Shown: positions 7,355 to 59,093 of the stretch, piece after piece
How the letters are laid out: every line of letters starts with the position of its first letter
Numbering within the stretch: position 1 is the first letter of the stretch
IMG/VR virus record: IMGVR_UViG_3300027782_000043
Strand: one strand, 5' to 3'
Origin: an uncultured virus (IMG/VR IMGVR_UViG_3300027782_000043)
Taxonomy: Duplodnaviria; Heunggongvirae; Uroviricota; Caudoviricetes
Length of the DNA: 64,000 nucleotides
Translations under genes and position numbers: made by a program
Notes under the pieces: model-generated
Databases searched by the model: none
The model's input: the letters and a program-made list of their open reading frames with translations, nothing else
What the model was told of the DNA's origin: nothing

Positions 7355-7909
7355 TTAGTAAAATTCATTTTCTCTAATCCAAATAACCGCAATATATTTA
7401 AAACCATTTGTTACTGGTAAACCAGCGTGGATACTATCATAATCTAAAGAACCGTCATCTTTTATGTTATCCCATAATACAAGTTTTCCTTTTTTGGGGA
7501 CTATTTTAATATTTAGGTTTGGAAATGATGTTTCCCCTCCTTCAAAATTATCATTTAAATAAACTAAACCTGTTTTTAATCTTTGTCCCCCTCTTTTTAT
7601 TTCATCATCATAATAATTTTCGTTAGGATGAAAAAAATCATGATGATCTTTATATTCTCCTCCAATATCATATTTTAAAACATTAATACTTTCCATGTTA
7701 ATTGTGGGTATTTGTGTTATTTCTGAAATAAGTTTTCTATATTTAATAACAACTTCACCATCTTCTTCCTCTAACCAAGTTCCTTTTGCTACTCTATATC
7801 CATCAATATTTTCACCAAGTACCTCAACATTATCAAAACTATCTGAAGATAAATTTATTAATTCATTACATTCTTCATCAGATAAAAAATTATTAATTTC
7901 TTTTACCAT
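7355..7909 (-). CDS. Prolyl 4-hydroxylase-like 2OG-Fe(II) oxygenase
   Basis: NFLSDEEC, YKDHHDFF (HxD), GGQRxxTxLVYLN..GGETSFP, SIHAGLPV..GFKYIAVIWIR (distal His and 2OG-binding Lys). Confidence 0.9.
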   Translation of the reverse strand: MVKEINNFLSDEECNELINLSSDSFDNVEVLGENIDGYRVAKGTWLEEEDGEVVIKYRKLISEITQIPTINMESINVLKYDIGGEYKDHHDFFHPNENYYDDEIKRGGQRLKTGLVYLNDNFEGGETSFPNLNIKIVPKKGKLVLWDNIKDDGSLDYDSIHAGLPVTNGFKYIAVIWIRENEFY

Positions 7910-18550: not shown

Positions 18551-18728
18551 GGCTAATATATTTTATTGCATTTCCTAAACTAAACCCCAAATCCCAAGCA
18601 TCAATAACTTTTATTGCTTCGTATTCGTTATTTTTTCCCCCATAATGTTGAGGATGATTTACTTGTTCTATTTTTATCGGTGGACACTGACAAAGTCCGG
18701 TTCCACCACATACACATTCTTTATCCAT
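18459..18728 (-). CDS. DUF3310 family protein
   Basis: VNHPQHYG..EAIKVI..GFSLGNAIKYISRAGKK..EDLRKALWY. Confidence 0.85.
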   Translation of the reverse strand: MDKECVCGGTGLCQCPPIKIEQVNHPQHYGGKNNEYEAIKVIDAWDLGFSLGNAIKYISRAGKKRKDTELEDLRKALWYIQHHIENIEK

Positions 18729-19852
18729 TATTCTTCTTTATATTCGTTTAATAATTCATCATTAGAAATTGTACCATATTTACCACTAAGATTATTTGTG
18801 TCAATATTTTTAGTCATCATGGTTTTTATATGGTATATTTGTTTTGTTTCGTGGAGTGATTTAACAATCTCAAAAATAATTTTATATGGGTCTGCGTTTG
18901 ATCCTGGTCTTCTGTCTTCAAGATATCCTTTCCATTCCTCTGCGGTTTCTTTTGGAACTCTAATTGATGCTCCTCTATCAGAGACACCCCAACTAAACTT
19001 ATCTATTGATTGTGTTTCGTATTCACCAGTAAGTCTTAAATTATTGTTTGAACCGTAAGATTTAATGTGTTGACGATGTCTTGATTCAAATGCGTTAAAC
19101 AATGACATAAAATATTCTTTATTTCCATCATTTCTCATAATATCTGTTGAAAAATTTGTATGAAGACCAGACCCATTCCATTTACCATGTGTAATTGGTT
19201 TTGGGTGTAAATCAATGTGGTATGAATATTTCTCTGAGGTTTTAAAAAGAAAATATCTTGTCATCCAAAGATCATCTCCACTTTTTAATTTTTCTTTAGA
19301 TAATACTTGGTATTCCCATTGTCCTAACGCAACCTCAGCATTAACTCCTGTAATATCAATTCCATAATTTAAACACATATTTAAATGTTTATCAACAAAA
19401 TCTCTTCCAACAACATATTGACCAACTCCACAATAATATTTACCTTGTGGTTCCAAGTTGTTTTGATCATGACCTAAAACGCATTTGTTTTTTTTGTCGT
19501 ATATAAAGTATTCTTGTTCAAAACCAAACCAAAGATCTTCAAAACCTTCACCAATACTTGATCTTTTATTTGACTCGTGTGGTGACCCATCAGAATTTAA
19601 TACCTCACATAAGACATATACGGTTGATTCCATATCTTTAAAATAATGTCTAACAGGTTTTAAAATACAATCTGAACTTCCTGTTTCAGCCTGTAATGTT
19701 GAAGACCCATCAAAGTTCCAAATTGGGAAATTTCCATCAAGAAACGCTTCCTTAATAGATTGATAGTCAACTATTTTTACCTTACTTCTAAGATTTGGTT
19801 CTGGTTTATATCCATCTAACCACACATATTCTAATTTAACTTTCATATACAA
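18728..19852 (-). CDS. glnII: Glutamine synthetase type II
   Basis: LEYVWLDG, WNFDGSST, GFEQEY, NAEVALGQWEYQ, HPKP..WNGSGLHTNFS, RGASIRVP, GYLEDRRP. Confidence 0.93.
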   Translation of the reverse strand: MYMKVKLEYVWLDGYKPEPNLRSKVKIVDYQSIKEAFLDGNFPIWNFDGSSTLQAETGSSDCILKPVRHYFKDMESTVYVLCEVLNSDGSPHESNKRSSIGEGFEDLWFGFEQEYFIYDKKNKCVLGHDQNNLEPQGKYYCGVGQYVVGRDFVDKHLNMCLNYGIDITGVNAEVALGQWEYQVLSKEKLKSGDDLWMTRYFLFKTSEKYSYHIDLHPKPITHGKWNGSGLHTNFSTDIMRNDGNKEYFMSLFNAFESRHRQHIKSYGSNNNLRLTGEYETQSIDKFSWGVSDRGASIRVPKETAEEWKGYLEDRRPGSNADPYKIIFEIVKSLHETKQIYHIKTMMTKNIDTNNLSGKYGTISNDELLNEYKEE

Positions 19853-20678: not shown

Positions 20679-22211
20679 TTAGTCAGTTCTAAATACAATA
20701 TAGGTATTTGAATTTATATTAACTTCTTGGTAATCCCCATCATAATGACTTATTACGCTATAGTCAGATTCATCAATTAAGTCACGTAGTAAATTTCTTG
20801 TATTAACAAAATTATCATAGTCCATACCATATTCATCTAACCAAGATATTGGGTCAGACTCTATCTCATCTCTTTTTTCTTCCATAACTCGTTCAATATC
20901 ATCATCACTTAAATCTCCATTAGGATTCTCTTCAATTTCTTCAATTTCAGAATCTATTTCTTCCGACCTATTCTCAATTTCTTCAATCCTTGATTCATTA
21001 TCCGATTCATGTTCTCCATCCTCATCTTCATCTTCATAAGTTACTGACTCAACCTTTTTATTGTTTTGGTAAATTTGCCATTTATCGTCAGACCATTCAA
21101 CAACTAATAAATTGTTCATATAATCTTTAAATTTAAAGTATTTCATACTTTCTATTCCTTCTTCAATAAGAGGAGATCTAGCCCCATTTGAAATTAAATA
21201 ATTTTCTATTTCAAGAGATTTTTTTTCATTTTTAAGATTTATTATTTCTCGATCTTGTTCTTTACTAGTTTCTTTAGAAATATCATAATCTTCAGGATTA
21301 TCATAAATCCCATCACGAATCGAATCTTCAAAATACTCATACACATCTTCACCATCAATGTGATAACTTAGTGTGCTTTTATCAAAATTACTTAAATCAT
21401 TTACCATATCTTCATAATATTCTTCAATGGAGTCATCCACCTCACTTTCAGTACCAACAGCATAAGTATTTCCATATGTATCACTATGAATTGATTTAAA
21501 TACTGTCATTTTATAGTAAGAATGCCGATCTTCGGGAACTAAACCATATTGATCATTATCTTTTTCCTTTAAGGCGTCAATATTTTCTTCTAACTCATCT
21601 CTTTCAACATATAAATCATCTAAAATTTCATCATCTTCCTCATTATCAATTTTTTCTTCAAGTTCCACCATTTGTATTTCAAAATTTTTCAGATCCTCAC
21701 GTTCTGAATCATCTAATATGTATAAATCACCAGTTTCGTACATATGTTCAAATACAGCATTTGCCATCTCACTTATTGCATCTGTATTTTTTATATTCCA
21801 TTCGTCATTTATTCTTCTTTCATTAGCGTCTTCCCTTTCTTGTTTTAATCTTTTTTTCTCAATTTCATCAGCATATGGTGTCATATGATACGAACCAAGT
21901 TTTTCAAATTTTACCCCGTCTAAGTTTTTTATTCCGGTATAAGGAATATCTAATTGTCCACTTACCGTTAAATCACCTAAACTAGTAATTTGTTTTAAAC
22001 CATTTAACGATAAATTACCATTAACTCTTATTTTTTTACCTTTAAACATTGGTAATCTTGAAATAACTTTTGCATTAAAATTAACAGATGCCAACAATTT
22101 ATGATATTGTTCCGGAGTAATTTCAAAGTAATCATTTTCAGATTCTTCAACAATAATATTTTTTATTAAAGTTATTAATTTGTTTTCTGTAATTTTTATA
22201 ATTTTTTTCAT
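20679..22211 (-). CDS. Highly acidic protein with N-terminal leader, putative virion-associated
   Basis: MKKIIKITENKLITLIKNIIVEE leader; short LRR-like stretch; D/E-rich; TATTTAT upstream. Confidence 0.7.
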   Translation of the reverse strand: MKKIIKITENKLITLIKNIIVEESENDYFEITPEQYHKLLASVNFNAKVISRLPMFKGKKIRVNGNLSLNGLKQITSLGDLTVSGQLDIPYTGIKNLDGVKFEKLGSYHMTPYADEIEKKRLKQEREDANERRINDEWNIKNTDAISEMANAVFEHMYETGDLYILDDSEREDLKNFEIQMVELEEKIDNEEDDEILDDLYVERDELEENIDALKEKDNDQYGLVPEDRHSYYKMTVFKSIHSDTYGNTYAVGTESEVDDSIEEYYEDMVNDLSNFDKSTLSYHIDGEDVYEYFEDSIRDGIYDNPEDYDISKETSKEQDREIINLKNEKKSLEIENYLISNGARSPLIEEGIESMKYFKFKDYMNNLLVVEWSDDKWQIYQNNKKVESVTYEDEDEDGEHESDNESRIEEIENRSEEIDSEIEEIEENPNGDLSDDDIERVMEEKRDEIESDPISWLDEYGMDYDNFVNTRNLLRDLIDESDYSVISHYDGDYQEVNINSNTYIVFRTD

Positions 22212-22294
22212 TCAATAATAAATATTATATTATTTACAAATTTAATAATATTATAATATTTATATATAAATAAACTATATAAAATTAAATTATT

Positions 22295-22435
22295 ATGGGA
22301 TGCGGATGTAAAAAAAATCAGTCTGAAGCGGCTCCTCAGCCACAAACACCAGTTCAACCTCAACCACAAGCACAAAATGTTACGGTTCAGGAATCTGTTA
22401 AAAAAATTGTTGAGAAATATTATAAAAATAAATAA
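22295..22435 (+). CDS. Small MGCGCK-type protein (46 aa)
   Basis: Absent from the track. MGCGCKKNQSEAAPQPQTPVQPQPQAQNVTVQESVKKIVEKYYKNK, with TATTTATA upstream (22257) and a hairpin downstream (~22459-22481). Confidence 0.7.
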   Translation: MGCGCKKNQSEAAPQPQTPVQPQPQAQNVTVQESVKKIVEKYYKNK

Positions 22436-22505
22436 TAGTCGTTTATAATATTTACTTGAGTGGGAAATTAGTTTTCTCACTTTTTTTATATTTATTAATA
22501 AAAAT

Positions 22506-23627
22506 ATGACGGTAAACAATATTATAGAAGAATTTAATGATGGTAATTGGGATAAAATATCTTCTATTTTTAATGGAAGAATTTTAACTTTTTTTAGATT
22601 TATAAAAGGAAAAAATTTATTAAATAAAATAGATATAAATAATATTCCTTCTGATGATTTTAGTAATGAAGTGTTTGATTATTTGGTTGAAAGTGATATA
22701 ATATCTAATTTAGAATATGATTCTGTTCCTGAATCGTTTATAAACAATTATTTACTACATGGTTTAGAACATAACTACGATAATACTATTAAGTATATTA
22801 CAAGCAACCTTTTAACTGATGTTGAAATTAGACCTGATGGGTTCTATTTATATTTAGGTAAGGATAGAGATGAGTTGGCTTCTTTTTTCTGTGGTTCCTC
22901 CCGTCGTGACATTTCTCCTGAAGATGTTGCAAAACAAATATTTGACGGAGATGGTTTAAGTGACGATTGGTATTTTGATGTTGACACAAAACCATCTGAA
23001 GTTATTGACGATTTAGACGAAAAAAATACCGCCCATTTAAAAGATGTTATTTTTAAAGAAATTGGTAATGTTGAATTATCTTTAGAAGATTATGATTCTG
23101 ATTTTTTTGAAGTCTTATCAGAAGATCAGGGAACTGAAGGTTATTTTAAAATTGGACCTGAAGATTTAAATGAATTAATTAAAGATTCCGAGGCAATAAA
23201 TGAACTATGTAAAAATGATTTGAGTGAGTTAGGTCAAGAATTACAAAGTGTTTATTGGAACGCATATAATTCTGCATATCAAAATGAAATATATGAATTA
23301 GTATATAATGGTTTAGATGAATACTTTGAAGGTAAAGTTGATGAATTCCCAAAAGAATATACCATGTCAGATGGTAAAAAACACTCCATATATGTAAATT
23401 ATATTAAAATTAGAAATTTTGTTGGTGACATTACTTTATTTTTAGAAAACAATAGAGGTCAATCATATTCAGATTCATATTTAGATTATTTTGGTAGTTA
23501 TACGACTTTGATGAAACAACTAATCTACGATGGTGATTTTGAATGTATAGATTTTAGAACTCCTGATTATCCAGATTGGTCTGATATTAAAAAAAATATA
23601 AACGAAAACTTTGGTGATTATATTTAA
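22506..23627 (+). CDS. Acidic hypothetical protein
   Basis: 373-aa ORF with TATTTAT at 22489. Confidence 0.7.
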   Translation: MTVNNIIEEFNDGNWDKISSIFNGRILTFFRFIKGKNLLNKIDINNIPSDDFSNEVFDYLVESDIISNLEYDSVPESFINNYLLHGLEHNYDNTIKYITSNLLTDVEIRPDGFYLYLGKDRDELASFFCGSSRRDISPEDVAKQIFDGDGLSDDWYFDVDTKPSEVIDDLDEKNTAHLKDVIFKEIGNVELSLEDYDSDFFEVLSEDQGTEGYFKIGPEDLNELIKDSEAINELCKNDLSELGQELQSVYWNAYNSAYQNEIYELVYNGLDEYFEGKVDEFPKEYTMSDGKKHSIYVNYIKIRNFVGDITLFLENNRGQSYSDSYLDYFGSYTTLMKQLIYDGDFECIDFRTPDYPDWSDIKKNINENFGDYI

Positions 23628-26496: not shown

Positions 26497-28446
26497 TTAA
26501 ATTGATGTGATTCCTTTGCAATGTTGTTTCATATTATCGGGGAATTCTACTAAGAAAAAATCTTCATCTATTGTCATATATTTTCGTAAAACTTCCGGAA
26601 TTATAATATCTGGATTAGATCCCTCAATTGAAACAAATTCTAAACAGGTTAAATTTACCATTGATTTGGGTAACCTTTCTAACTCAATGTTATTAGTTAA
26701 ATTTAAAAATGTTAAATTTTTACATTCACCAATACTTTCAGGTATACTTTTGATCATATTATCAAGAACCAAAGTATCTAAATTTTTAAATTTACCAATT
26801 GATTCTGGTAAATCTAACAGTATTGGGGATGATCCTTTATTTTCAATATTAATGAATTCAATATTTTCTGATAGGGATTCAAAAAATTCTTCAAATCCAA
26901 ACATCACAATAAATTTAGATGGGTCATCTTTAGGGTACTGTAATATTACTTTGTTATCCGCAAAAATTGTGTTTAGTTCATTTTTATATTTTCGTTTTAA
27001 ATCTCTAAAATATGGTCTCATTTCTTGAGATAATATTACTGCAATATCGTTTTCTGTTACTTCTTTTAAAGTTTTTGTTAGTATTTTTTCTTTTTTCTTA
27101 GAAACATAATATGTCATTGCTGCAGGGGCTAACCTCTTAACCATATTACCATCTAATTCATTTCCAAGACCAATATATTTTTTTTGTAATTCTTCAGGTA
27201 AATTACCAAATATTTCATCACCATTAGTAATATTTTTAAAATCAGGACCTCTTAATTCCATCCATAATTCAACCTCATCTACTGATCCTAATTCTTTAAC
27301 AGGATCAGAGGTTGTAAGATTAAGACTTTTATATTTGGTTAGTTTTTTTGTGTCTTCATCAGTAAATGGTTTTGGTACAAGATAATCTTCCTTACCTTCA
27401 AGACTAGGAACTTTTTGAGTTATTTCTCTCCAAGATATTTCTTCTCCTCCCGCAAATCGACCGGAATTTGATCTATCCGCTAATTTCATTCTTCCGTACT
27501 TATCAACAAGTATAACAACCGCATAATTTAAATCAGATTCTTCAAGGTTTTTACTAATAACATAATACAATGTTAAGTTTTGATTTAATCTATAATTGTA
27601 ATAATAATTACTTGATCCTTCCCATGATGTACACCATCTTCTATCTGGAGCATATTTTTTTCTAATATTAATACACTTATGTTTTTGATCAGGAGCAAAA
27701 ATTAATATGTTATCATCTTCATATGCAATGTCCACGTCACTCACATCAATTTCAGGCATACTATATTCATCTTCTCCAGCCGGAGTATAACCATCAACAA
27801 TGTGTTCAAATTCATCAAAAGACATAAATGAACTTAATTTTGTGTTTAATGGTATTAATAAAAAATTAGTGACAAATCTTTTAACTCTTGGTAGTATAAC
27901 TGTAAGTGGATCCTCATCAGGAATTTCTTTTGCGAATTTCTCAGTCATTCTTTTTGTTAATGCATTTTCTCCGTTCTCATTAAATCTATCAAAATATTTT
28001 CTAACAAGACTATCAAGTTGTGATGGGTTTAAATCTGTAACCGGATTTTTAAACGCTTTATCTTCAGGAAACAATGTTTTCAACTCAAAATATTTTTTAA
28101 TATTTTGTTTTGTTAGTAGTAAATCCGTTCCTTCGTATTTTGTAACAAATTCTTGAGCAAAACTATCAAGATCTTTTTTAGTTTGTTGTTTTGTGGATTT
28201 ATCCTTAATTAACTGTTTTAACTTAATATAAGTGTGTCTAAAAATATCCTTATCTTCGTTAGCAAAACCACTTTTAAATCTTTCAAAGTCAGAAATAACT
28301 TTTTTTATATCATCCTCACTATCGTCTGTTTCTAATGAAAATTTATCAACTAATCGTTTAATTGTTGATTCAGGATATTCTAATAATATTTTTTGTATAT
28401 TTAAATTTTCATTAATTATCTTTGACAAAATTTTTACTAATTCCAT
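26497..28446 (-). CDS. WCT-domain protein with C-terminal leucine-rich repeats
   Basis: LRRs LPESIGKFKNLDTLVL / IPESIGECKNLTFLNL / LPKSMVNLTCLEFVSI; central AYEDDN..WCTS..YYYNY domain. Confidence 0.8.
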   Translation of the reverse strand: MELVKILSKIINENLNIQKILLEYPESTIKRLVDKFSLETDDSEDDIKKVISDFERFKSGFANEDKDIFRHTYIKLKQLIKDKSTKQQTKKDLDSFAQEFVTKYEGTDLLLTKQNIKKYFELKTLFPEDKAFKNPVTDLNPSQLDSLVRKYFDRFNENGENALTKRMTEKFAKEIPDEDPLTVILPRVKRFVTNFLLIPLNTKLSSFMSFDEFEHIVDGYTPAGEDEYSMPEIDVSDVDIAYEDDNILIFAPDQKHKCINIRKKYAPDRRWCTSWEGSSNYYYNYRLNQNLTLYYVISKNLEESDLNYAVVILVDKYGRMKLADRSNSGRFAGGEEISWREITQKVPSLEGKEDYLVPKPFTDEDTKKLTKYKSLNLTTSDPVKELGSVDEVELWMELRGPDFKNITNGDEIFGNLPEELQKKYIGLGNELDGNMVKRLAPAAMTYYVSKKKEKILTKTLKEVTENDIAVILSQEMRPYFRDLKRKYKNELNTIFADNKVILQYPKDDPSKFIVMFGFEEFFESLSENIEFINIENKGSSPILLDLPESIGKFKNLDTLVLDNMIKSIPESIGECKNLTFLNLTNNIELERLPKSMVNLTCLEFVSIEGSNPDIIIPEVLRKYMTIDEDFFLVEFPDNMKQHCKGITSI

Positions 28447-29480: not shown

Positions 29481-29636
29481 ATGAAAACTGAAGCAACACA
29501 AGTAACCGGATGTAAAAAATGTGACCAATCGTCAAGTAAAACACAAAAATTTGTTTTTATTACTGGGGCAATAATGTTTTTATTGACAATATATGGTTTA
29601 GTTTCTTTAATATATGATATTAAATCACTATTTTAA
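29481..29636 (+). CDS. Small membrane protein with CxxC
   Basis: Probable start MKTEAT after TATTTAT (29461); GCKKC and a C-terminal TM helix. Confidence 0.55.
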   Translation: MKTEATQVTGCKKCDQSSSKTQKFVFITGAIMFLLTIYGLVSLIYDIKSLF

Positions 29637-30559
29637 CTTCTATTGTATTTAATATATTGATTTATTAATAAATCGCCATTATGTTGGCTTTTATACCCTT
29701 TTCCTTTAACTCTTAATGGTGTTGATGTATCAACATTATTTGGGAATTTAACATTTATCTTTCCATCTGGATGTGGGACATCAAATGATCCTCTTTTTAA
29801 ATCCTCAAGATTTAAAAAAGCACTATATATAAGATTTGTTCCTAATTTTTCAAAGTTACCCTCATTAGTTGTTTTAACTCTAATAACTAAATTACCATAT
29901 CCCCCGTTTCTATAATCACCAAGTCCTTGTAATCTTAAAAACTGACCATCATCAATTCCATGTGGTAGTTGGATCTCGATTGTTTTAATCTCATTTTTTG
30001 TTCCTTGTCCCCCACAAGCATAACAAGCTGCTGTTGTTATTTTACCAACACCATTACAAGTATTACATGCTACTTGGACTATCTGTATAAACATTCCTGA
30101 ACCCATTTGTTTTACAACAAATCCTTTTCCATTACAAACATTACATGGTTTTTTCTCTCCCCCATTTCCATTACATGGAGGACATTTATCTTTTCTGTTA
30201 TATGTTATACTTTTTTTACCCGCTAAGTATGATTCCAATACACCAATATTTATATCAATTATGGTGTCGTGAACTCTATTTTGTGAATTACGACCACCAA
30301 ACATATTATTCATAATGTCATTCATTGATTGACCCCCAAAACCGTTCATGTTAGAAAATGGGTTATTTCGTTGGTTGTTGTATTGTGATCTTTTATTTTC
30401 GTCTCCAATAGTATCATATGCAGTTGAGATTTTTTTAAACTTTTCCTCATCTCCACCTTTATCTGGGTGATTTTCTTTAACTAAATTCCTATAAGCTTTT
30501 TTAATTTCGTCTTGAGTTGCACTTTCTGTAACTCCTAACACATTATAATAATCTTCCAT
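29633..30559 (-). CDS. dnaJ: Co-chaperone DnaJ
   Basis: J domain with HPD, four CxxCxGxG repeats, C-terminal domain. Confidence 0.96.
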   Translation of the reverse strand: MEDYYNVLGVTESATQDEIKKAYRNLVKENHPDKGGDEEKFKKISTAYDTIGDENKRSQYNNQRNNPFSNMNGFGGQSMNDIMNNMFGGRNSQNRVHDTIIDINIGVLESYLAGKKSITYNRKDKCPPCNGNGGEKKPCNVCNGKGFVVKQMGSGMFIQIVQVACNTCNGVGKITTAACYACGGQGTKNEIKTIEIQLPHGIDDGQFLRLQGLGDYRNGGYGNLVIRVKTTNEGNFEKLGTNLIYSAFLNLEDLKRGSFDVPHPDGKINVKFPNNVDTSTPLRVKGKGYKSQHNGDLLINQYIKYNRS

Positions 30560-48956: not shown

Positions 48957-50222
48957 ATGAGTTGTAGTATAGATATTTGTATAAGTAATACGGGGATATA
49001 CGATGATACGTATACAATAGATGGTTTATATAATAGTTTAGATTATTATACGGGAGCCACTAATGGTTATTACATTTTTTATTCAACAACAGAAAGTAGA
49101 TGGTGTTTAGCTGCAAACTTGGGAGATCCTTGTATTTTATTTGGTCCAACAAATTCCGTTAATCCATGTCCTGATTTTTATTCTGGAATTCTTGTTGACG
49201 GTTTATGCCCAACCCCAACTCCAACCCCAACCCTAGCTTGTGATATTGATTTTGATGCACTATTTGATTGTGACGTATTTGTAACTCCTACCCCAACACC
49301 AACCTCAACACCAACCTCAACTTTAACTCCGACACCAACACCAACTAATGTTTGTGGGGGAGTATCTTTAGATGTTACCGCAAACACATATTCTCCAACA
49401 CCAACTCCAACACCAACATTAACCCCCACACCTTCATCACCAATTGATAGACCATGTAATTTTGATGGTATTGCCAAATTTAATAGTGTTGATGGGTTTA
49501 TTGTATGTGCAACTAGTAAGAAATTTGAGGATTGTTTTACAGGTATAGAATACTATACAACACAAACATTATTTGATTCTTTTGGTAATTTATTAGTTGT
49601 TGGTGACGTTTATGGTGGAACAATAAACGGAATATCTTCATGTTTTATTTTTCAAACAATTGTAGATAACATAAGTGGTGGAGACAAAGTTGTTATTACT
49701 ACAGAATATGGTCCTTCTAGTGAAGGTAGTTGTTTAAATTGTTTCCCAATTAGTAATACTCCCACATTAACACCTACTATAACACCAACCCCGACAACAC
49801 CTTGTTTATGTTTGTCATATAGAATTTCAAACTTTAGTGTTTTAACCACAACAATTAGTTTTTTAGATTGTGATGGTAAAAACATTATGTTAAGACCTGG
49901 ATCTATGCGTTGGAATAATTGGTTAAATCATGAGGTAATTATTTGTTCTAAAACTATACCTACAATTGGTGTTGGGTCTGCAACTATTATAAATATTGGT
50001 GATTGTTGTAATGGTATTTGTGTACAATACTTATTAAGTAATCTTTCAACATCACCCGAAACTTATGTTTATACAAATTTATTAGGTGTTATTATATCTC
50101 AAACATTAAATGTGTCTCAAAGTATTATAGTTAATTCATTTTCAACACCATATTCTTTGAGTGGATCAATATCTGTAACAAATACAGGAATTGATTGTTT
50201 TCCAACACCAACACCAAATTAA
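48957..50222 (+). CDS. Cys-rich, (Thr-Pro)n repeat protein, putative tail/fibre component
   Basis: Multiple PTPTPT tracts between Cys-rich domains. Confidence 0.75.
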   Translation: MSCSIDICISNTGIYDDTYTIDGLYNSLDYYTGATNGYYIFYSTTESRWCLAANLGDPCILFGPTNSVNPCPDFYSGILVDGLCPTPTPTPTLACDIDFDALFDCDVFVTPTPTPTSTPTSTLTPTPTPTNVCGGVSLDVTANTYSPTPTPTPTLTPTPSSPIDRPCNFDGIAKFNSVDGFIVCATSKKFEDCFTGIEYYTTQTLFDSFGNLLVVGDVYGGTINGISSCFIFQTIVDNISGGDKVVITTEYGPSSEGSCLNCFPISNTPTLTPTITPTPTTPCLCLSYRISNFSVLTTTISFLDCDGKNIMLRPGSMRWNNWLNHEVIICSKTIPTIGVGSATIINIGDCCNGICVQYLLSNLSTSPETYVYTNLLGVIISQTLNVSQSIIVNSFSTPYSLSGSISVTNTGIDCFPTPTPN

Positions 50223-50950: not shown

Positions 50951-53485
50951 TTATAAATCAAACTTAACTAAGAATTGTTGAATTCCTTGTCTTAAAACAG
51001 GAGATTGTAACTTTGAGACAACTAATACGTCTTTTTTATCATCTAACAACGCTATTTCAGTAATATAAGAATTAGTTCCTGATTTCCAAGTTGGATTTGA
51101 TGTTTTTTGAAATTCAGTATAATTTAAATTAATCTTATACATCATTTCATATATTGTTGCTTGTATATCAGTTTCAATACCTCCGTAGAAATAATACTCA
51201 TCTCCAAAATTTAATTTTGGTCCAACATTACCAATAGGGGTTAAATTAATATATTGATTTAAATCATAGAATGGTGCCGAATTATATAACGATTCAGTAA
51301 CAATAAATGTAGTTCCTGTTAATGCATCTTCAGTAAGATAACCATTAATTGTTTGTCCACTTATAGTATTAGTAAAATCAATTAATTTCCATTTTGAAGA
51401 ATCTGGTCTTGTCCCTGTAGGTACTTTTTGTGCCAATACTTCAAATTTAGTACCATAAAATCCATTTGGAATATCACATGTAGGACATATTGTTGTAGTT
51501 GTCGTAACAATAGGATTAAGTGTTGTAGTTGTTGTTATAGGTCCAAATGTAGTTGTTGTTGTTGTTGGATTATATCCAGGAACAACCAAACATCCAAATT
51601 CTCCCCCAAATCTTATTGCAACATTTTTAGATGTGTCAGGAAAACAATCATTATTATTACCCACAATTTTAACATAATAATTAGAATGTAATGAATTTGT
51701 AAAACCATAATCATTACTAATTCTATATGTAATATACATAGTTTCATTGTTTCCTGTTAATATACCATTAATTTCTCCCGAGGTAGTATCACAAATATTT
51801 GGAGTTATTAAAGAAACTTGTGGTGCAGGTAATGTCCAATTTCTATTTGATTTATAAGATAACGCAGCAACAATTTCTTCATCATCAATAATAATTGTTT
51901 GACTATCTGGAAATACTTTACCAATTCGACTTGGCAATCCATTATTGTTTGGGTGTGTATCCCATAAGTGATAATATCTTAATCCAGGATTATTCATATC
52001 ATTATTTTGATTTGATTCCATATAATGAACTTCAAATAAGTTTTTATCTTCAAAATCAGGCGGATCAACCCAAAAAGTAGATCCAAAACAACATTGTGGA
52101 TTTTTATGCCACATAATCCATGGTATATATAATTTAAAATTTCTAGCTTGACCTGTTGTATCATTAGGATTAGATGTATCATATGGTTCTAACGCAAATT
52201 TTTCACCATAAAAGAAATCAATCGTTTGGTTTGTATAATGAATAATTGCAATTGTTTTTTGTTCTTCAGGTTCAACTTTAATAACCTCATCAAATGAATT
52301 ATAATAATAAGTGTCAGTAGTTTCAGCACTTAATACTGAATTTACGTAAAATGTCTGTCCTAAGTTTGAATTATACCCAAAATACTCTTTACTACCAATA
52401 TAATTAACAGATCCAAAATAAGTATAATCTTCATGTTGTGTTGGTAATAATCCGGCAGGATTTTCGGTCCAAGGAATATTCATGTTCCAAATTTTAACGT
52501 CAAAATTATCAACATCACATAATGTTTCGTAATTAATAACGTCATCACCCCAATGTGGACTTGGAGTTATACTATCATATAAATCTGTCATACTTTTAGG
52601 GTAAACTAAAGCTCTAAAACAACATTCGTCACTTATTAATCCAAAATCTGGTGTTGTTCTATCTAATGTTACTTTATTTTCACAAATTGCAATAATTCTA
52701 TAAGTTAAAATTGGATAACAACTATATAATGACATCAAACAAACGGGGTCAGGTGGTGCGGGACATTGTCTACTTGGTGTTGGTGTCAAACATTCTGTTT
52801 TTGTAAGGGTGGGTGTTGGGGTTGGACTTTCACAATTAATGTAACCACTACTTACTGATGGTGTTGGAGTAGGTGTGGGTGTGGACCCTTGTGATGCCGT
52901 TGGTGTTGGTGTTGGTAAATTGGTACATGAACAATTTTCACATCCTAAACCATCAAAATAAATAGTAATAAAATCACCAACCTCGTAACCTCCAAATGAA
53001 GATGTGTTACATCCCGAATAAATTAAAGTTATTTCATTAGTACCATTTAATGATAATGGATTTACCAAATAATTAGAAGTTTTAACATAATTATTACTTG
53101 TTAACGCACTCCAATTAATTGTACTTGCGGTTGTGTTACCACTAAAAAACCCCCTTAAAGGAGCTCGATTAAACACAGACTCAACAGTTGAGTCCATGTA
53201 TGGAATTCCGTATGTATTTCCCCCAATATTATCCACATAATATGGGTATTTAACATTTTGTTTATTTGATTGTGGTATTCCGTCACTATTTTGACTTCCA
53301 AACGGTGGAGTTAAGACAAAACTATTAACTTGATTATAACTAACAGAAACTTTATCATAAGAAACTTCACTATCCCCTACCTGAAAATAACTTACATTAA
53401 AATTTCCTTGTGACATCTTTAACCTGCCAGTATCCGTTATTCTGGTGTTAACAAGTCCTGATGTATTTTTTATTATATATGACAT
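50951..53485 (-). CDS. Virion structural protein with TP/T-rich inserts
   Basis: N-terminal RITDTGR..FQVGDSEVSY and C-terminal YITEIALLD..VVSKL..P, typical of tail-associated proteins; TATTTATA upstream. Confidence 0.7.
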   Translation of the reverse strand: MSYIIKNTSGLVNTRITDTGRLKMSQGNFNVSYFQVGDSEVSYDKVSVSYNQVNSFVLTPPFGSQNSDGIPQSNKQNVKYPYYVDNIGGNTYGIPYMDSTVESVFNRAPLRGFFSGNTTASTINWSALTSNNYVKTSNYLVNPLSLNGTNEITLIYSGCNTSSFGGYEVGDFITIYFDGLGCENCSCTNLPTPTPTASQGSTPTPTPTPSVSSGYINCESPTPTPTLTKTECLTPTPSRQCPAPPDPVCLMSLYSCYPILTYRIIAICENKVTLDRTTPDFGLISDECCFRALVYPKSMTDLYDSITPSPHWGDDVINYETLCDVDNFDVKIWNMNIPWTENPAGLLPTQHEDYTYFGSVNYIGSKEYFGYNSNLGQTFYVNSVLSAETTDTYYYNSFDEVIKVEPEEQKTIAIIHYTNQTIDFFYGEKFALEPYDTSNPNDTTGQARNFKLYIPWIMWHKNPQCCFGSTFWVDPPDFEDKNLFEVHYMESNQNNDMNNPGLRYYHLWDTHPNNNGLPSRIGKVFPDSQTIIIDDEEIVAALSYKSNRNWTLPAPQVSLITPNICDTTSGEINGILTGNNETMYITYRISNDYGFTNSLHSNYYVKIVGNNNDCFPDTSKNVAIRFGGEFGCLVVPGYNPTTTTTTFGPITTTTTLNPIVTTTTTICPTCDIPNGFYGTKFEVLAQKVPTGTRPDSSKWKLIDFTNTISGQTINGYLTEDALTGTTFIVTESLYNSAPFYDLNQYINLTPIGNVGPKLNFGDEYYFYGGIETDIQATIYEMMYKINLNYTEFQKTSNPTWKSGTNSYITEIALLDDKKDVLVVSKLQSPVLRQGIQQFLVKFDL

Positions 53486-53508: not shown

Positions 53509-55569
53509 TTATTTTTTTATCCCCACACCTAAAGGATTAACTACTCTTACCGTATCGCAATTATTATTTATTTTTACATTATTTAAATAAATGTGGTAGT
53601 ATCTGTTTGCAATAAAACAATTTGGTGTTGGTAAAACGGGAGATATTGTATCAGTATAAGAACCGTTTATAATAGTTCCTGATGTCATAGATAAATTAAT
53701 CCAATTATATTGTCTTGTTGTGGAATATTTAAAAGATGCTTGACAAGGAAATGTTTGTGGAAGTGGTAAGAATGGAGTTATTGATTGATTAGTGGCGGTG
53801 ACGGGTGATCCATTAACATTTAATGTTGCTATGTTGTTATAAGTGGCAGCTGCCGCTGATGGTCCAACGGTAAATGTGTTAGTATGAATTACATCAAAAG
53901 TAATCGTTACACCAATTGGTAATAAAGGAGAAACATTTACATTAAACACATTAGTACCAAATATAGTAGAAGCGTAAGACATAGTAACAATATAGTTTAT
54001 ACTTGAAGTTGGGGGAGGTAAAACAACCGTTTGAGTACTTGTAAATCCTGAAGAATCTCTGACATAAACAATATATGATCCTTGACATAAGTTATTATAT
54101 ATTGTTGTAGGTTGATACGTTGATCCTCCGTTGATTGAATACTCATATGGTGGTGTTCCCCCAAAAGGAGTTAATAATATACTTCCATCACAACCACATT
54201 CGGGTCTATTAACTCTTATTGTTAAGTTGGGAGTACTAAGTTTAGTACATAATCCTAAATTTGCGGTTATTGATAATATTTGATTAGGTAATGATGTTCC
54301 AACCGAATTCCACCCAAATAATGGTGGGGTAGAACTGTTTATATTAATTATTTGTCCCGCCGTCCAACCCGATACTTGCCATTGATTACCATTAAGATTC
54401 CATACAATATCTAAACTATTTATAGTATCCTCCCAAGTTGGGTAATCATCAATGTACCCATTATATTGAAATTCATAATATTCAACATAAGATTGTTGTT
54501 TATTTCCTCTTATAATTGTAAGACAGATATCTTCGTATATCGGTAAAGGATTAAAAGTTGTTGTACTTGTTGTAATTGGTATTTCAACCCCTAAAACACA
54601 AGTGGTATATGCCGTAAAATCCCCGTAATAATCAGTAACGATTGAATCATATTTTCCAACCCCAAGATTACTTAAAGATTGTGAGATAGATCCGTTTTCC
54701 CAAATAACCTCATAAGGAGGAGTCCCCCCTGTTATACCTAAAGTAATTAACCCGTCAAAAGAACTTGATGTTAATGGGTCAACTGTAAAACATTCAACAC
54801 CGAGAGGAAAAATTGTTATAACATCACATTCGTTTTTAGGTTCAATTGGTGGATTTGGTGGTGCAAAAGTTGTTGTTGTTGTAACAATCGGGTTAGTCGT
54901 AGTTGTTATTGTACAAGGGGTACATTTACCATTGTTAATAATTTGTATATCTCCCGATAAAACTTTTACTCCTGTTGAGCTACATATAGAAATACCTGTT
55001 TGGTAAGGCATATTATATGGTGATTTTTTTCCCTCATCACAACATGGGGTAAATTCAATCTTTGTTTTAACGTTTTGTGAGGATTGATTAGTTACAAAAT
55101 AATTAGTACAACAACTATTATCTACAACACAGGTATCACAATTATTGTACTCATTAACATTAAACTGAACTAAAGTAACACTTTCAGATCCAACTATACT
55201 ACAGTCATATGTGGAGGAAAGACCACGTCCAACTAATTCATAACAACCAGATTTATAATTATTAGGATTTGAAGATAGTAAGGCCTCATTAAAATAAATT
55301 ATAACACCATTTAAATAATTTCCAAAAACTGATGTAGGTGGTCCGTCAAAATAAAAAGAATCATCATTACAACAACTTTGAAAACAATATCTTATTGTTC
55401 CTTTTGTAAGTGAGTTAATATATAAGAGTGGGTTTGTAACACTAATATTACCATTAATATAATAAGAAACCCCAGGTGATAAATCAACCACTTTAATAAC
55501 GTTATTGTCGTCAGTAAACGTAAAGTTATTATAAATTACCGAACCACTATTTATTACTTGATAAACCAT
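53509..55569 (-). CDS. SprB-repeat, Cys/Thr-rich putative tail fibre or adhesin
   Basis: GGTPPYEVIW..NLGVGKY..VTD and GGTPPYEYSI..NLCQGSY.VYVRD. Confidence 0.72.
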   Translation of the reverse strand: MVYQVINSGSVIYNNFTFTDDNNVIKVVDLSPGVSYYINGNISVTNPLLYINSLTKGTIRYCFQSCCNDDSFYFDGPPTSVFGNYLNGVIIYFNEALLSSNPNNYKSGCYELVGRGLSSTYDCSIVGSESVTLVQFNVNEYNNCDTCVVDNSCCTNYFVTNQSSQNVKTKIEFTPCCDEGKKSPYNMPYQTGISICSSTGVKVLSGDIQIINNGKCTPCTITTTTNPIVTTTTTFAPPNPPIEPKNECDVITIFPLGVECFTVDPLTSSSFDGLITLGITGGTPPYEVIWENGSISQSLSNLGVGKYDSIVTDYYGDFTAYTTCVLGVEIPITTSTTTFNPLPIYEDICLTIIRGNKQQSYVEYYEFQYNGYIDDYPTWEDTINSLDIVWNLNGNQWQVSGWTAGQIININSSTPPLFGWNSVGTSLPNQILSITANLGLCTKLSTPNLTIRVNRPECGCDGSILLTPFGGTPPYEYSINGGSTYQPTTIYNNLCQGSYIVYVRDSSGFTSTQTVVLPPPTSSINYIVTMSYASTIFGTNVFNVNVSPLLPIGVTITFDVIHTNTFTVGPSAAAATYNNIATLNVNGSPVTATNQSITPFLPLPQTFPCQASFKYSTTRQYNWINLSMTSGTIINGSYTDTISPVLPTPNCFIANRYYHIYLNNVKINNNCDTVRVVNPLGVGIKK

Positions 55570-55597: not shown

Positions 55598-56578
55598 TCA
55601 ATTTATTGTTTTTTGAATAAATGATTTCATTACTTCAATATATTTTATTGTTGTACTATTAATTTCAATATAATCAAAGTGGGATGGGTTTTCTTTAAGT
55701 TTTAAAATAGGGTCAATTGTAATATATTCTCCTTTATAAAATTTATTACTTTTTAAATTATCTGTAACTCCAGCCATATGTAAAATAGGTCTTTCTTCAT
55801 ATACTTTTAAATTATCTGTTGCCCAAGAAAAATTAAGATCATCAACAACTTTAGTATCATAATTTAATAACCATAAATTCCACAATAAAGACCACATTTC
55901 TGCCGTCCAAAATTGGATTTCACCAGGACTTATTGGGTGTCTTTTGTGATAACTATGCATTTGTTTATAAAGAGGATAACAATCCAAATATATTTTTTCC
56001 CAAAGACTATATGTCATATTTTTCAATAAATATTGACCCCCACCTGAGTTTTCTTGGTTATCTTTAATTATGTCAACGTTTATTCCAACAATATTTGCCA
56101 TTTCTTTTAATAATTGACCTTTTTCTGATTTTGGGTGTGCTTTTTCATATCTGTTACAACAATCCATTATATAGTTGTATCCGATATAACCAATTGTATC
56201 CGATAAATAAGAAATATCATCATTCATTAATTTATTAAAATCGGGTAATACTCTAAAAATAATATCCGCATCATGTAAGAAAAAAGTTTTACCATATTCA
56301 GGATATTCAAATAACCATCTTGATATTAAATATGGTTTGATACTTGGGATATAATTTTTACTTATTCTATCATCAATGTAAAAATGTACATTAAACCCGT
56401 AATCACATAGTTCTAACGCTCCCTTAGAAGGTTCTGTTTGTCCATTAGTTAATCCAAAAATAACATGAATTTGACAAGGATTGATTCCCTTTTCAATAAA
56501 GTTATGAGTATAAAGTTTTATTTGCCAATGAAAATAAGGAACATCAGGTTGAGCGGACACAAAAATAATATCTTCCAT
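55598..56578 (-). CDS. GT-A glycosyltransferase resembling HPAT/SGT (GT95/GT96-like) protein O-glycosyltransferases
   Basis: YFHWQ, YIPSIKPYLISRWL, FLHDADIIF (DxD), WTAEMW, ILH. Confidence 0.65.
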   Translation of the reverse strand: MEDIIFVSAQPDVPYFHWQIKLYTHNFIEKGINPCQIHVIFGLTNGQTEPSKGALELCDYGFNVHFYIDDRISKNYIPSIKPYLISRWLFEYPEYGKTFFLHDADIIFRVLPDFNKLMNDDISYLSDTIGYIGYNYIMDCCNRYEKAHPKSEKGQLLKEMANIVGINVDIIKDNQENSGGGQYLLKNMTYSLWEKIYLDCYPLYKQMHSYHKRHPISPGEIQFWTAEMWSLLWNLWLLNYDTKVVDDLNFSWATDNLKVYEERPILHMAGVTDNLKSNKFYKGEYITIDPILKLKENPSHFDYIEINSTTIKYIEVMKSFIQKTIN

Positions 56579-56639: not shown

Positions 56640-59093
56640 TTACCCACTACATGGATACGATGTTATACACGTTGGACAATCAATAGAAAAAAGAAATGGA
56701 GTTGCGGTACCAACTGCGGTACCATTAGTTGTTGAAACTGTAGTCCAACAATTACTATTGTACACTAATAATTGACCCGCAATAGTCCCTAAAGGTAATA
56801 TTAAAATAATATTTGAAACTAATCCACAACAATCGGAAACTATCCATTTATTTACAAATGTTGGGGTCGGTGTTGGGGTCGGTGTTAAATTTGGGGTATT
56901 TGTTTGGGATGGTGTTGGTGTAGGGACATCACATTCAACACAAGAAATATCATAATTTATTATTAAATTAATTACAACTTTTGCATCAGATAACGTATTA
57001 AATTTAGTTGGTACACAACTTTTATTGATGTCTTCACAATCATTTACAATAGTTATTTTGTTTTTAACAATGTCTATATCAACTTCACCAATATCCGGAT
57101 AAGATAATAACATTAATTTTATTATATTAATCCATTCAATATCTGTTGGGTAATCATAAAGTCCTATTGAGGTATAAAATAAGTTTTGTTTTATCACCCC
57201 ATTTACACTTGTTTCAATAATAAATTCCGCACCATTAATTACACACCCTAAATCATTGTATGTTAAATCAAAAAATCCCTCACTATACATTTGTCCTATT
57301 CCTCTCATACCATCAATTCCAGTATTAACAAAATTAGTGTCACTTATATTGTAAACTTGATAATCACCTAAAAGTATAGTTCCCGATAAAACAATTGATT
57401 TAGTATGTGTACATCCAGAACTATCAACAACTTGTAATGTATATGTTCCCGCACTTAAATTAGTTACTGTTGATCCAGTTTGTGAGTTTACATTTGAACT
57501 CCAATTATAAGTAAAAGGTGGAGAACCACTACTTAAAAAAGAACTTATTTCACCATCATTTCCATTAACAGGTTGTATTGCAAATAAATTAAAAAATACG
57601 GAATTTGATGGTCCAACATATGCTGTTGTTGTTTGTGAACAACCATTTGCATCGGTAACGGTAACATTATAAAACCCAAAAGGTAAATTATTATAAAAAT
57701 TAATTGGAGATATTGCGTATCCAGTAATTTGATAAGTATATGGTAATGTACCCCCACTAGTTGTTAATATCTGTAAGGTACCATTATTTAATCCACATGT
57801 GGTATTAGTTGTAACCGCAGTTATTGTAAACAAATTAACATTTGTAACTGTTGTGGTTCCAGTATAAACACATCCTGAATTATTATCAATCAAAATTGTA
57901 TATGTGTCTGATTGTAAATTATTAAAAGTTGTGTTAGTACCAACAGTTGTTGTATTAACCGTATTTCCGGAAGAATTCAGTAACGTATAGGTAAATGTTC
58001 CCGTAGGGGATCCAGTATTAACAACTATTGTTATTGCCCCATTATTACCACAATTAGAATTTGTTGTGGTAATTGATGAAATAGTAAATCCATTGGGTGT
58101 TGTTAACGAAGTTGATTGAGTATCACTACATAACCCAGCATCTTTAACAGTAACGGTTAAAATACCTGAAGGTAAATTTTGAAATGTGTATGTGTTTGAG
58201 AATGTAACTATTGTATCCCCATTAGATCCAGAAAAAAAGAATGGTGCTGTCCCCCCAGTAACAGTGACTTCAACCACACCATCACTATTAAAACAAGTAC
58301 TTCCTGTTGTTAAAAAAGAAGATATTCCAATTGGCGGAACATTATTAACCGAAATACTATCGGAAACGGAACATCCATTTGAATCTGTTACGGTAACAGT
58401 GTAATATCCAACCGTTAATCCAGTTGCTGTAGACCCTGTTTGTCCATCATTCCAAATATATGTATAAGGACCAACTCCTGTTTGTCCAGTAACAAATATT
58501 TTTCCCGAACCAAAAGCAACATTACAACTTGCATCGTCAACAACATAAAACCCGTAAGAAAAAGTTGTTGATGATAAAATTGGTACGCTCGAACTTACTC
58601 CATTACACCCTGCACCATCATCACCAACAATATAATAAGTTCCTCCCGATAAATTTGAAAAGGTTATTCCACTAGTTGGAGTTGACCCACTATTTATATA
58701 CCCGTTTGTTGTTTCATAAAGCAATGCAGATCCAACCCCATAAAAAGGGTTAAACCCAAATGTTATTTCTCCATCATCATTACCACAAGTTGTATTTATT
58801 ACATTTTCAACACTTATAGATGTTCCCGATGATATTGGTATGTTTAAGTATATTGTATCAAAAGTTGGATTTATACACGAATCTTGGATTGCCAAACTAT
58901 ATGTACCGGCAGACATTCCACTAAAATAATAAGTTGTTGTGGATGCAGATGTTGGTAATAAACCTGTTGAGGAAATTTCATATACAGTGTAGGGTGAAGT
59001 ACCACCAGTTATCTCAATGTAAATTTCTCCAACATTAGTATTAGTACAATCACCAGAGATATAAAGATTATATATTATTTGTCCACAACTCAT
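56640..59093 (-). CDS. Multi-SprB-repeat protein, putative tail fibre or adhesin
   Basis: About seven GGTxPYTY..L..G.Y.VTV.D..GC units; C-terminal TP tract. Confidence 0.8.
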   Translation of the reverse strand: MSCGQIIYNLYISGDCTNTNVGEIYIEITGGTSPYTVYEISSTGLLPTSASTTTYYFSGMSAGTYSLAIQDSCINPTFDTIYLNIPISSGTSISVENVINTTCGNDDGEITFGFNPFYGVGSALLYETTNGYINSGSTPTSGITFSNLSGGTYYIVGDDGAGCNGVSSSVPILSSTTFSYGFYVVDDASCNVAFGSGKIFVTGQTGVGPYTYIWNDGQTGSTATGLTVGYYTVTVTDSNGCSVSDSISVNNVPPIGISSFLTTGSTCFNSDGVVEVTVTGGTAPFFFSGSNGDTIVTFSNTYTFQNLPSGILTVTVKDAGLCSDTQSTSLTTPNGFTISSITTTNSNCGNNGAITIVVNTGSPTGTFTYTLLNSSGNTVNTTTVGTNTTFNNLQSDTYTILIDNNSGCVYTGTTTVTNVNLFTITAVTTNTTCGLNNGTLQILTTSGGTLPYTYQITGYAISPINFYNNLPFGFYNVTVTDANGCSQTTTAYVGPSNSVFFNLFAIQPVNGNDGEISSFLSSGSPPFTYNWSSNVNSQTGSTVTNLSAGTYTLQVVDSSGCTHTKSIVLSGTILLGDYQVYNISDTNFVNTGIDGMRGIGQMYSEGFFDLTYNDLGCVINGAEFIIETSVNGVIKQNLFYTSIGLYDYPTDIEWINIIKLMLLSYPDIGEVDIDIVKNKITIVNDCEDINKSCVPTKFNTLSDAKVVINLIINYDISCVECDVPTPTPSQTNTPNLTPTPTPTPTFVNKWIVSDCCGLVSNIILILPLGTIAGQLLVYNSNCWTTVSTTNGTAVGTATPFLFSIDCPTCITSYPCSG

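Follow-up and report, generated by a model that had tools for sequence, protein, structure and literature searches.

The window (the whole stretch of 64,000 nucleotides analysed here) is part of the genome of an AT-rich jumbo phage, the GT-bearing relatives of which measure 274-291 kb at 93-99% estimated completeness, and its source is predicted to be an aquatic-type jumbo myophage of ~290 kb. The gene under study, hereafter GT, encodes a putative glycosyltransferase. Its open reading frame begins with ATG, has no internal stop and lies in a run of co-oriented minus-strand genes going from 63989 to 50289. The coordinates of the main features are given in Table 1. Two further regions of the window, 26497-28446 and 20679-23627, were noticed by eye; they hold a protein of 649 aa whose C-terminus resembles leucine-rich repeats, and two acidic ORFs (510 and 373 aa) in convergent/divergent arrangement, for which no family was recognised. 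The DnaK gene is absent from the five relatives searched.

Table 1. Coordinates of the features discussed, in the window unless a contig is named.
Feature	Coordinates	Strand	Remark
GT-A glycosyltransferase, 326 aa	55598..56578	(-)	PHROG 4417, HPAT/SGT-related (predicted)
DxD motif, D103-A-D105	56264..56272	(-)	predicted metal/nucleotide-sugar site
W224-T-A-E227-M-W229 motif (with Q222)	55892..55909	(-)	predicted acceptor-side motif
H267 of HxAG	55778..55780	(-)	predicted third metal ligand; 59/59 aligned relatives
Insertion of ~11-12 aa	56126..56161	(-)	common only to GT, L096 and the bacterial sister clade
817-aa Cys-rich SprB-repeat protein	56640..59093	(-)	directly upstream of GT; candidate acceptor
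686-aa SprB-repeat protein, Thr-rich linkers	53509..55569	(-)	directly downstream of GT; candidate acceptor
844-aa protein, with a TP tract around residue 202 and poly-Thr in three runs (641-665)	50951..53485	(-)	
421-aa Cys-rich protein, several TP tracts	48957..50222	(+)	
P4H-type 2OG-Fe(II) oxygenase, 184 aa, intact	7355..7909	(-)	PF13640, 54.8 bits
DnaK-, DnaJ- and glutamine-synthetase-like ORFs	8301-10157, 29633-30559, 18728-19852		recognised by eye
Big_2 Ig-like ORFs	L087 6107-6286; L089 1843-2103; L329 2877-3071		GT-negative relatives

Plant hydroxyproline arabinosyltransferases (HPAT) and serine galactosyltransferases (SGT) carry the motifs N(K/R)P....WL, DxD and W..EM(Y). The three stretches of the GT in which the original prediction had seen an echo of these motifs were all located, SIKPYLISRWL at residue 79, HDADIIF at residue 102 and WTAEMW at residue 224. 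The DxD, placed after the strand 98-101, is conserved in the aligned relatives (D103 in 58/59, D105 in 59/59). Residues Q222, W224 and W229 are present in 59/59 relatives with D or E at position 227 in 51/59, and this motif aligned to the WESDM of a bacterial HPAT-like family. By comparison with GT8 enzymes, the conserved H267 is predicted to be the third ligand of the metal. Considering that the maximal 19-residue hydropathy is 0.61 and that the first strand starts from residue 5, the protein presents no membrane segment and is predicted to be soluble rather than membrane-anchored.

The PHROG 4417 profile matched the GT over its full length (residues 6-319, E 2.5e-66, 224.7 bits). This family is listed as of unknown function under the name 'prophage pi2 protein 34', and its relatives include bIL285 Orf45 and LP65 Orf49; Pfam, NCBIfam and PDB sequence searches gave no name for the GT. 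The family is large, with 1178 of the 1673 candidates passing E <= 0.001 and 815 representatives in a clustering at 50%.

The AlphaFold2 model built from the 59-sequence alignment reached a pLDDT of 97 and predicts a GT-A, Rossmann-like fold. Its best Foldseek matches are UGGT, WbbM, LARGE1 and glycogenin. Superposition with VIA-align ranked glycogenin highest (Z 15.2, rmsd 3.6 over 231 residues), then the Skp1 galactosyltransferase and LgtC, and these three together with UGGT and WbbM are the nearest solved folds, with Z of 13.8-15.2 at an identity of 6-10%. GT-A enzymes of the GT8/GT24/GT6 families (glycogenin, LgtC, UGGT, Skp1 galactosyltransferase) gave the best solved-structure matches at Z 12-15, but with an identity of just 6-12%, rmsd of 3.3-4.5 and a TM of ~0.44. 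Model, Foldseek and superposition bear out the glycosyltransferase identity proposed originally, and this likeness between folds cannot by itself tell protein from glycan acceptors.

The relation to HPAT was examined by profile comparison. Neither the GT nor its relatives matched the Pfam GT8 model (PF01501), and the hhalign probability of the GT family against an 8-sequence GT8 profile, used as control, was 4.5%. Against a bacterial HPAT-like profile, made of one protein passing the PF23452 cut-off and 40 of its 74 relatives, it was 88.5% (E 2.7e-6, 261 columns), with the motifs Y..WQ, P...WL, DxD, W..(D/E)M and I.H in register. The PF23452 model itself (gathering score 23.9 bits) gave no match with the GT and a score of 12.6 bits (E 0.09) with 1/59 relatives. 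In the ESM Atlas, HPAT is named in 10% and 58% of the members of the named neighbours at 0.96-0.97. Since the bacterial HPAT profile aligns while the PF23452 cut-off failed, the GT is assigned as HPAT/SGT-related but outside GT95/PF23452, an assignment set by bacterial profiles. The HPAT/SGT likeness claimed initially therefore stands as a relationship closer than that to GT8, and not as membership of the family. With plant HPAT (GT95, PF23452) and SGT1 (GT96) the GT would share a remote homology, the catalytic motifs being aligned via the bacterial relatives. The plant enzymes are described in passages of PMC8012813 as Golgi type II membrane proteins, whereas the phage GT is predicted to be soluble; the plant acceptor is Ser-Hyp4, and the partner tracts of the phage GT are Thr runs. 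For HPAT the acceptor is hydroxyproline and the donor UDP-Araf.

The GT had been placed between two SprB-repeat structural genes, and both flanking products indeed match PF13573 above the 28-bit cut-off (37.9 bits for 53509-55569 and 76.4 bits for 56640-59093). Tracts were scored by a single rule (T5+, [PT]8+ or (T[PS])4+), which was positive in 4 of the 10 genes past 48.9 kb versus 0 of the 81 before (Fisher p 8e-5). The positives are exactly the four genes for which the original prediction had claimed long tracts in at least four neighbours. The word long is, however, too strong for 53509 and 56640, because residue shuffles reached the observed tracts 36 and 126 times out of 2000, a modest excess over chance, compared to 0/2000 for both 48957 and 50951.

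In the 56640..59093 product, which matches the virion structural protein phrog_26672 (E 1e-7), the TP tract is C-proximal (residues ~728-746). Of the 80 related viral loci, 79 have the orthologue of 53509..55569 next after GT, and the remaining one stops at GT. The tract of 50951..53485 is retained in 74 of 77 orthologous ORFs, and this protein is the strongest candidate acceptor of the GT. The 48957-50222 gene, on the opposite strand, is separated from the run by a RuvC-like gene (PHROG 159/827) and has a primase on its other side. Its orthologues, from ~300 to 1170 aa long, present TP tracts (31), poly-T tracts (11), both (18) or none (5), and such an interchange of TP and poly-T is seen among the orthologues of the GT neighbours of the window. 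In G011, a near-complete relative, the same run comes after genes for the tail sheath, the tail tube and the baseplate hub and two for baseplate wedges, of which the last lies ~20 kb upstream of GT. As this run comes after tail and baseplate genes, the neighbours of GT in the window are plausibly baseplate or fibre proteins, a virion location that draws on position and on weak PHROG matches.

Among cultured phages, the GT family was found in 77 records (tblastn, E 0.01), with hosts that include Lactobacillus, Enterococcus, Staphylococcus, Lactococcus, Clostridium and Chryseobacterium. Twelve carrier phages were inspected, and in 11 of them the gene directly upstream of GT encodes a Thr tract; the exception, bIL285, has its tag on the tail protein five genes on from GT. 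The upstream partners are capsid, tail-tube, small decoration or fibre-like proteins, with the tract mostly as a C-terminal tail. The LP65 tracts are of the TTTETQ type, without a T5 run.

Carriers were then compared with matched controls picked by capsid or tail similarity and not by tails, a GT-negative control being scored as having no T5 run in the stretch examined. In three groups, 5/5 phages with GT and 0/9 without GT had poly-Thr tails on a capsid or tail-tube protein. In the Lacticaseibacillus group, whose capsid proteins are 96-98% identical, PLE3 and R9.1 have GT as well as tails on both the capsid and the tail-tube protein, and CL1, iLp1308, R24.2 and JNU_P10 (judged on its capsid protein only) have neither; CL2 and R26.9 were left out. 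In the same way, R3.3 has GT and tails while Bassarid, phiJL-1 and Javan47 lack both, and SA2 and PMBT8 have GT and tails while 6ec and SEP9 lack both. The corresponding Fisher p of 5e-4 is an overstatement, because 14 phages in three groups are not independent events. Between the capsid and tail tags of one phage, 25-32 of 36 nt are the same in four phages and 19 of 36 in phiFL2A; near-identical tag DNA within a phage is as expected of a copied tag.

The three GT-negative phages tested present a Big_2 Ig-like ORF directly after the capsid gene, and the Thr tag with GT and the Ig-like ORF at the same site look like two alternative capsid decorations. In the phiFL2A (L081 9001-9858) and phiFL1C records, GT reads in two pieces, from either a sequencing error or a recent loss, with the Thr tails of phiFL2A intact. 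In Staphylococcus phage SA2 (L332 10126-10939), the reading frame of the tail protein closes with a Thr run at CCC TAA, and a frame overlapping it encodes a further mucin-like Thr extension of 60 residues; the two are likely joined by a +1 frameshift, at what we take to be a motif of the kind used by other phages. In a single query, no tail protein with such a tag was found among solved structures.

A pattern scan of 2.9 million contigs gave 212 stretches with GT. Tracts were found in 77/80 IMG/VR loci of relatives, many of them near-duplicates; together with the matched cultured phages, this agrees with the link between GT and tract genes that the original prediction draws. In GTDB, a tract gene is in the locus of 35/45 stand-alone GTs and directly upstream in 31/45. 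The stand-alone loci contain 132 tracts, of which 106 are T only and none alternating TP. For the long-form GTs the count of 3/35 with a tract is too low, because the tract rule is blind to PTT-type repeats and, where loci are GC-rich, gene calling took shadow ORFs. An exception to the pairing is L144 (1-10966), a contig from a T4-like prophage or phage, which has a stand-alone GT after tail genes and no Thr tract within 16.9 kb.

In the reverse direction, GT was present in 8 of 80 loci chosen only for (ACN)10, i.e. ten Thr codons, which is far above its frequency in the collection. The other 72 loci lacked it, as did all 26 further poly-Thr contigs (mostly fragments, some not phage). The link between GT and tag thus runs one way, poly-Thr ORFs also occurring without GT. 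A second reverse pattern, T9-S-K-stop, returned 12 loci, none with GT, mostly outside ORFs of >=50 aa and so uninformative. Near GT-less poly-Thr genes, 35 ORFs with a DxD were scanned against Pfam; three other GT-type matches came up (L209, L215, L263) but no consistent substitute for GT.

In GT-domain trees, nine bacterial proteins form the sister group of the window GT and that of contig L096 (SH 0.979 with 90 sequences; UFBoot 96 in a 29-sequence subset). The insertion of 11-12 residues occurs in 11/90 sequences, exactly these eleven, and carries much of the weight of the grouping since the bacterial branch is long. Eight of the nine bacterial proteins are fused to a GT60-like domain, and 6/9 loci contain a Pro/Thr-repeat ORF; the two such ORFs scanned have an N-terminus that is PqqD-like, just under the cut-off. 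A 2OG oxygenase and a PF23452 gene lie beside GT in 5/9 loci, the other four having short flanks on that side. The gene order of L106 is P4H, HPAT-PqqD, GT. Its P4H is 35% identical to that of the window, which is no proof of a common transfer because the solved Bacillus P4H shows a similar level of identity. These sequences indicate that the P4H-plus-HPAT context is real one branch from the window GT, and in these clusters the Hyp step could also fall to the PF23452 gene or the GT60 domain. Clusters of this kind (L106 1-5200; L116 5214-13021; L107, L134, L135, L121) were noted in Myxococcales and Acidimicrobiia MAGs; their PqqD-like Pro/Thr-repeat precursor, 2OG/P4H oxygenase, HPAT-like protein and GT make a candidate extensin-like bacterial glycopeptide pathway.

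A separate Bacteroidota clade groups 28 GT sequences (SH 0.96), and a C39-peptidase ABC transporter and/or a LanC-like gene was found in 27/80 GTDB loci. The adjacency of this clade to peptidase-containing transporters and LanC-like genes points to peptide acceptors, and its loci are candidate glycosylated RiPP clusters. In loci of this clade (L108 7217-12824, L146 10001-12488) GT is often fused to a GT7C-like domain, and L146 encodes a double-glycine-type leader peptide at the GT locus.

An intact P4H-type oxygenase had been claimed at the other end of the window, 48 kb from GT. The protein aligns with a solved bacterial P4H (E 3e-32) and has the HxD...H triad (H89-x-D91, H161) and the 2OG-binding K171, in agreement with that claim. 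Its distribution is different from that of GT. It was found in 1/28 GT-bearing viral records (mostly fragments), so that the co-occurrence of P4H and GT expected by the original prediction did not hold. It was absent from the 3 near-complete GT-bearing relatives (93-99% complete), and no PF13640 match was found in 12 cultured GT carriers, which speaks against an extensin-type P4H step as the general mechanism. Using a 99-aa neighbour gene as anchor, we found in G010 and G011 that the genes flanking the P4H are 400 bases apart, i.e. an empty site, in genomes that still have TP tracts. Close relatives of the P4H in IMG/VR amount to 8 loci plus G006, compared to 212 stretches for GT. Given this rarity and its absence from cultured carriers and near-complete relatives, the P4H is a genuine but accessory gene of a subclade, with a putative tie to GT.

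The comparative data on tracts and P4H point to threonine, not hydroxyproline, as the acceptor. The inference of the original prediction, that the phage glycosylates the TP linkers of its tail or fibre proteins, is upheld in that GT is tightly tied to Thr-rich tracts of structural proteins; its hydroxyproline step is not, most tracts elsewhere being pure Thr and TP and poly-T being swapped among orthologues. As GT and Thr tags are gained and lost together in unrelated phages, the carrier phages probably sugar-coat their own particles, and we give a probability of roughly 0.68 to the reading that the GT O-glycosylates threonines of the structural proteins of its own phage, where both catalysis and acceptor are deduced from comparison. 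The protein would act late in infection as a cytoplasmic, metal-dependent (Mn) GT-A initiating protein O-glycosyltransferase, with a host nucleotide sugar as donor, probably UDP-hexose or UDP-HexNAc, and a probably retaining mechanism. Metal use and retention are features of the GT8-type neighbours and of GT95/GT96 enzymes. The sugar would be placed on the threonine hydroxyls of Thr-run and Thr-Pro tracts, before or during assembly. In the window the acceptors would be the neighbouring Cys-rich SprB-repeat fibre-like proteins and, elsewhere, short C-terminal poly-Thr tags of the major capsid, tail-tube or small decoration protein. The outcome may be a mucin-like surface, stiffened, protease-resistant or masked, or an adhesion function replacing the Ig-like domain. 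GT and tag would move together as one cassette, proline hydroxylation being unnecessary.

The data were also weighed against a two-step scheme as in extensins, in which a phage or host P4H hydroxylates (Thr-Pro)n and the GT glycosylates Hyp or the adjacent threonine. An intact P4H conserved in close relatives, true (TP)n tracts in the jumbo-phage lineage when the GTDB loci have none alternating, and the sister clade with its 2OG oxygenase, HPAT-like gene and Pro/Thr-repeat precursor all speak for it, and to this extent the extensin analogy keeps some basis. But the P4H is missing from most carriers and lies far from GT, G010 and G011 keep TP tracts without it, TP and poly-T interchange, and the bacterial clusters have other candidates for the Hyp step, so that we regard this scheme as rather unlikely. 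Restricted to the jumbo subclade, with its own P4H hydroxylating the (Thr-Pro)n virion linkers and the HPAT-related GT glycosylating them, it is a doubtful proposal; if true, plant-style hydroxyproline glycoprotein chemistry would be present in bacteria and recruited to phage particles. Threonine would likewise not be the direct acceptor if the GT only extended a glycan primed by a host or other phage enzyme, or were a non-catalytic tag-binding assembly factor. The closest folds do include extenders (glycogenin, LARGE1, xyloside xylosyltransferase, Skp1 galactosyltransferase), and several GTs are reported in related jumbo phages in passages of PMC12619734. Yet by profile the GT stands nearest to the initiating enzymes of the HPAT type, its catalytic motifs do not vary and a cassette of one GT plus tags moves among different host phyla, which makes either role improbable.

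Two other readings place the acceptor outside the virion proteins. The GT could alter host LPS, capsule or teichoic acid, leading to superinfection exclusion or serotype conversion, the tracts being linkers or modified by the host. The LPS enzymes LgtC and WbbM among the structural neighbours and the poly-Thr ORFs found without GT would fit; however, the family is shared by phages whose hosts, Gram-positive or Bacteroidota, differ in their envelopes, GT lies inside head-tail operons, has no membrane segment and hardly matches the GT8 profile, and it tracks terminal tags that link nothing. A role of this kind is quite improbable. Finally, the GT could hypermodify DNA and shield the genome from restriction, as phage GTs often glycosylate DNA (according to passages of PMC12619734) and the window encodes a 2OG oxygenase. 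This is highly improbable considering that GT is in structural modules and co-varies with protein tags, and that the oxygenase is P4H-like and missing from most GT carriers.

To our knowledge, phage particles are generally taken as unglycosylated. The exception cited in passages of PMC12619734, PMC11256854, PMC10877033 and PMC12691614 is that of the mycobacteriophages, with the virion O-glycosylation of Che8 and relatives (Freeman et al. 2023). As described in these passages, the mycobacteriophage system shares with the present one phage-encoded GTs, glycans at the C-termini of capsid or tail-tube subunits and a proposed shielding; in both, a phage GT is linked to capsid or tail subunits with hydroxy-amino-acid C-terminal extensions, as predicted for the window. 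Here, the predicted acceptor is a portable tag of poly-Thr, in phages of Firmicutes and Bacteroidota, and the glycan is putative, whereas glycosylation of the mycobacteriophage capsid and tail tube is established. As no Mycobacterium phage is among the 77 GT-family records (tblastn, E 0.01), the GT may be of a different family from the mycobacteriophage enzymes. By description, the window phage is alike in gene content to the moraphages of PMC12619734 (DnaK-, DnaJ- and glutamine-synthetase-like ORFs), for which passages of that paper report four core putative GTs with their target given as unknown; in these passages no GT is tied to Thr tracts, and the word threonine has 0 occurrences. In the literature covered, in which subscription journals are mostly not included, neither PHROG 4417 nor a poly-Thr tag is described in connection with virion glycosylation; one paper, on Elizabethkingia genomes, contains the phrase 'pi2 protein 34'.

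The comparative case for a widespread, previously unannotated cassette of putative virion O-glycosylation is real and well supported, while its chemistry is what we infer from it. If true, PHROG 4417 would make virion O-glycosylation a trait of dairy, gut, staphylococcal and aquatic phages, readable from sequence via a short portable Thr tag, and this would matter for how stable phages are, how they adsorb and how the immune system recognises them. The GT would also be a soluble enzyme that initiates O-glycosylation on a simple tag, placing HPAT/SGT-type peptidyl glycosylation in phages and bacteria.
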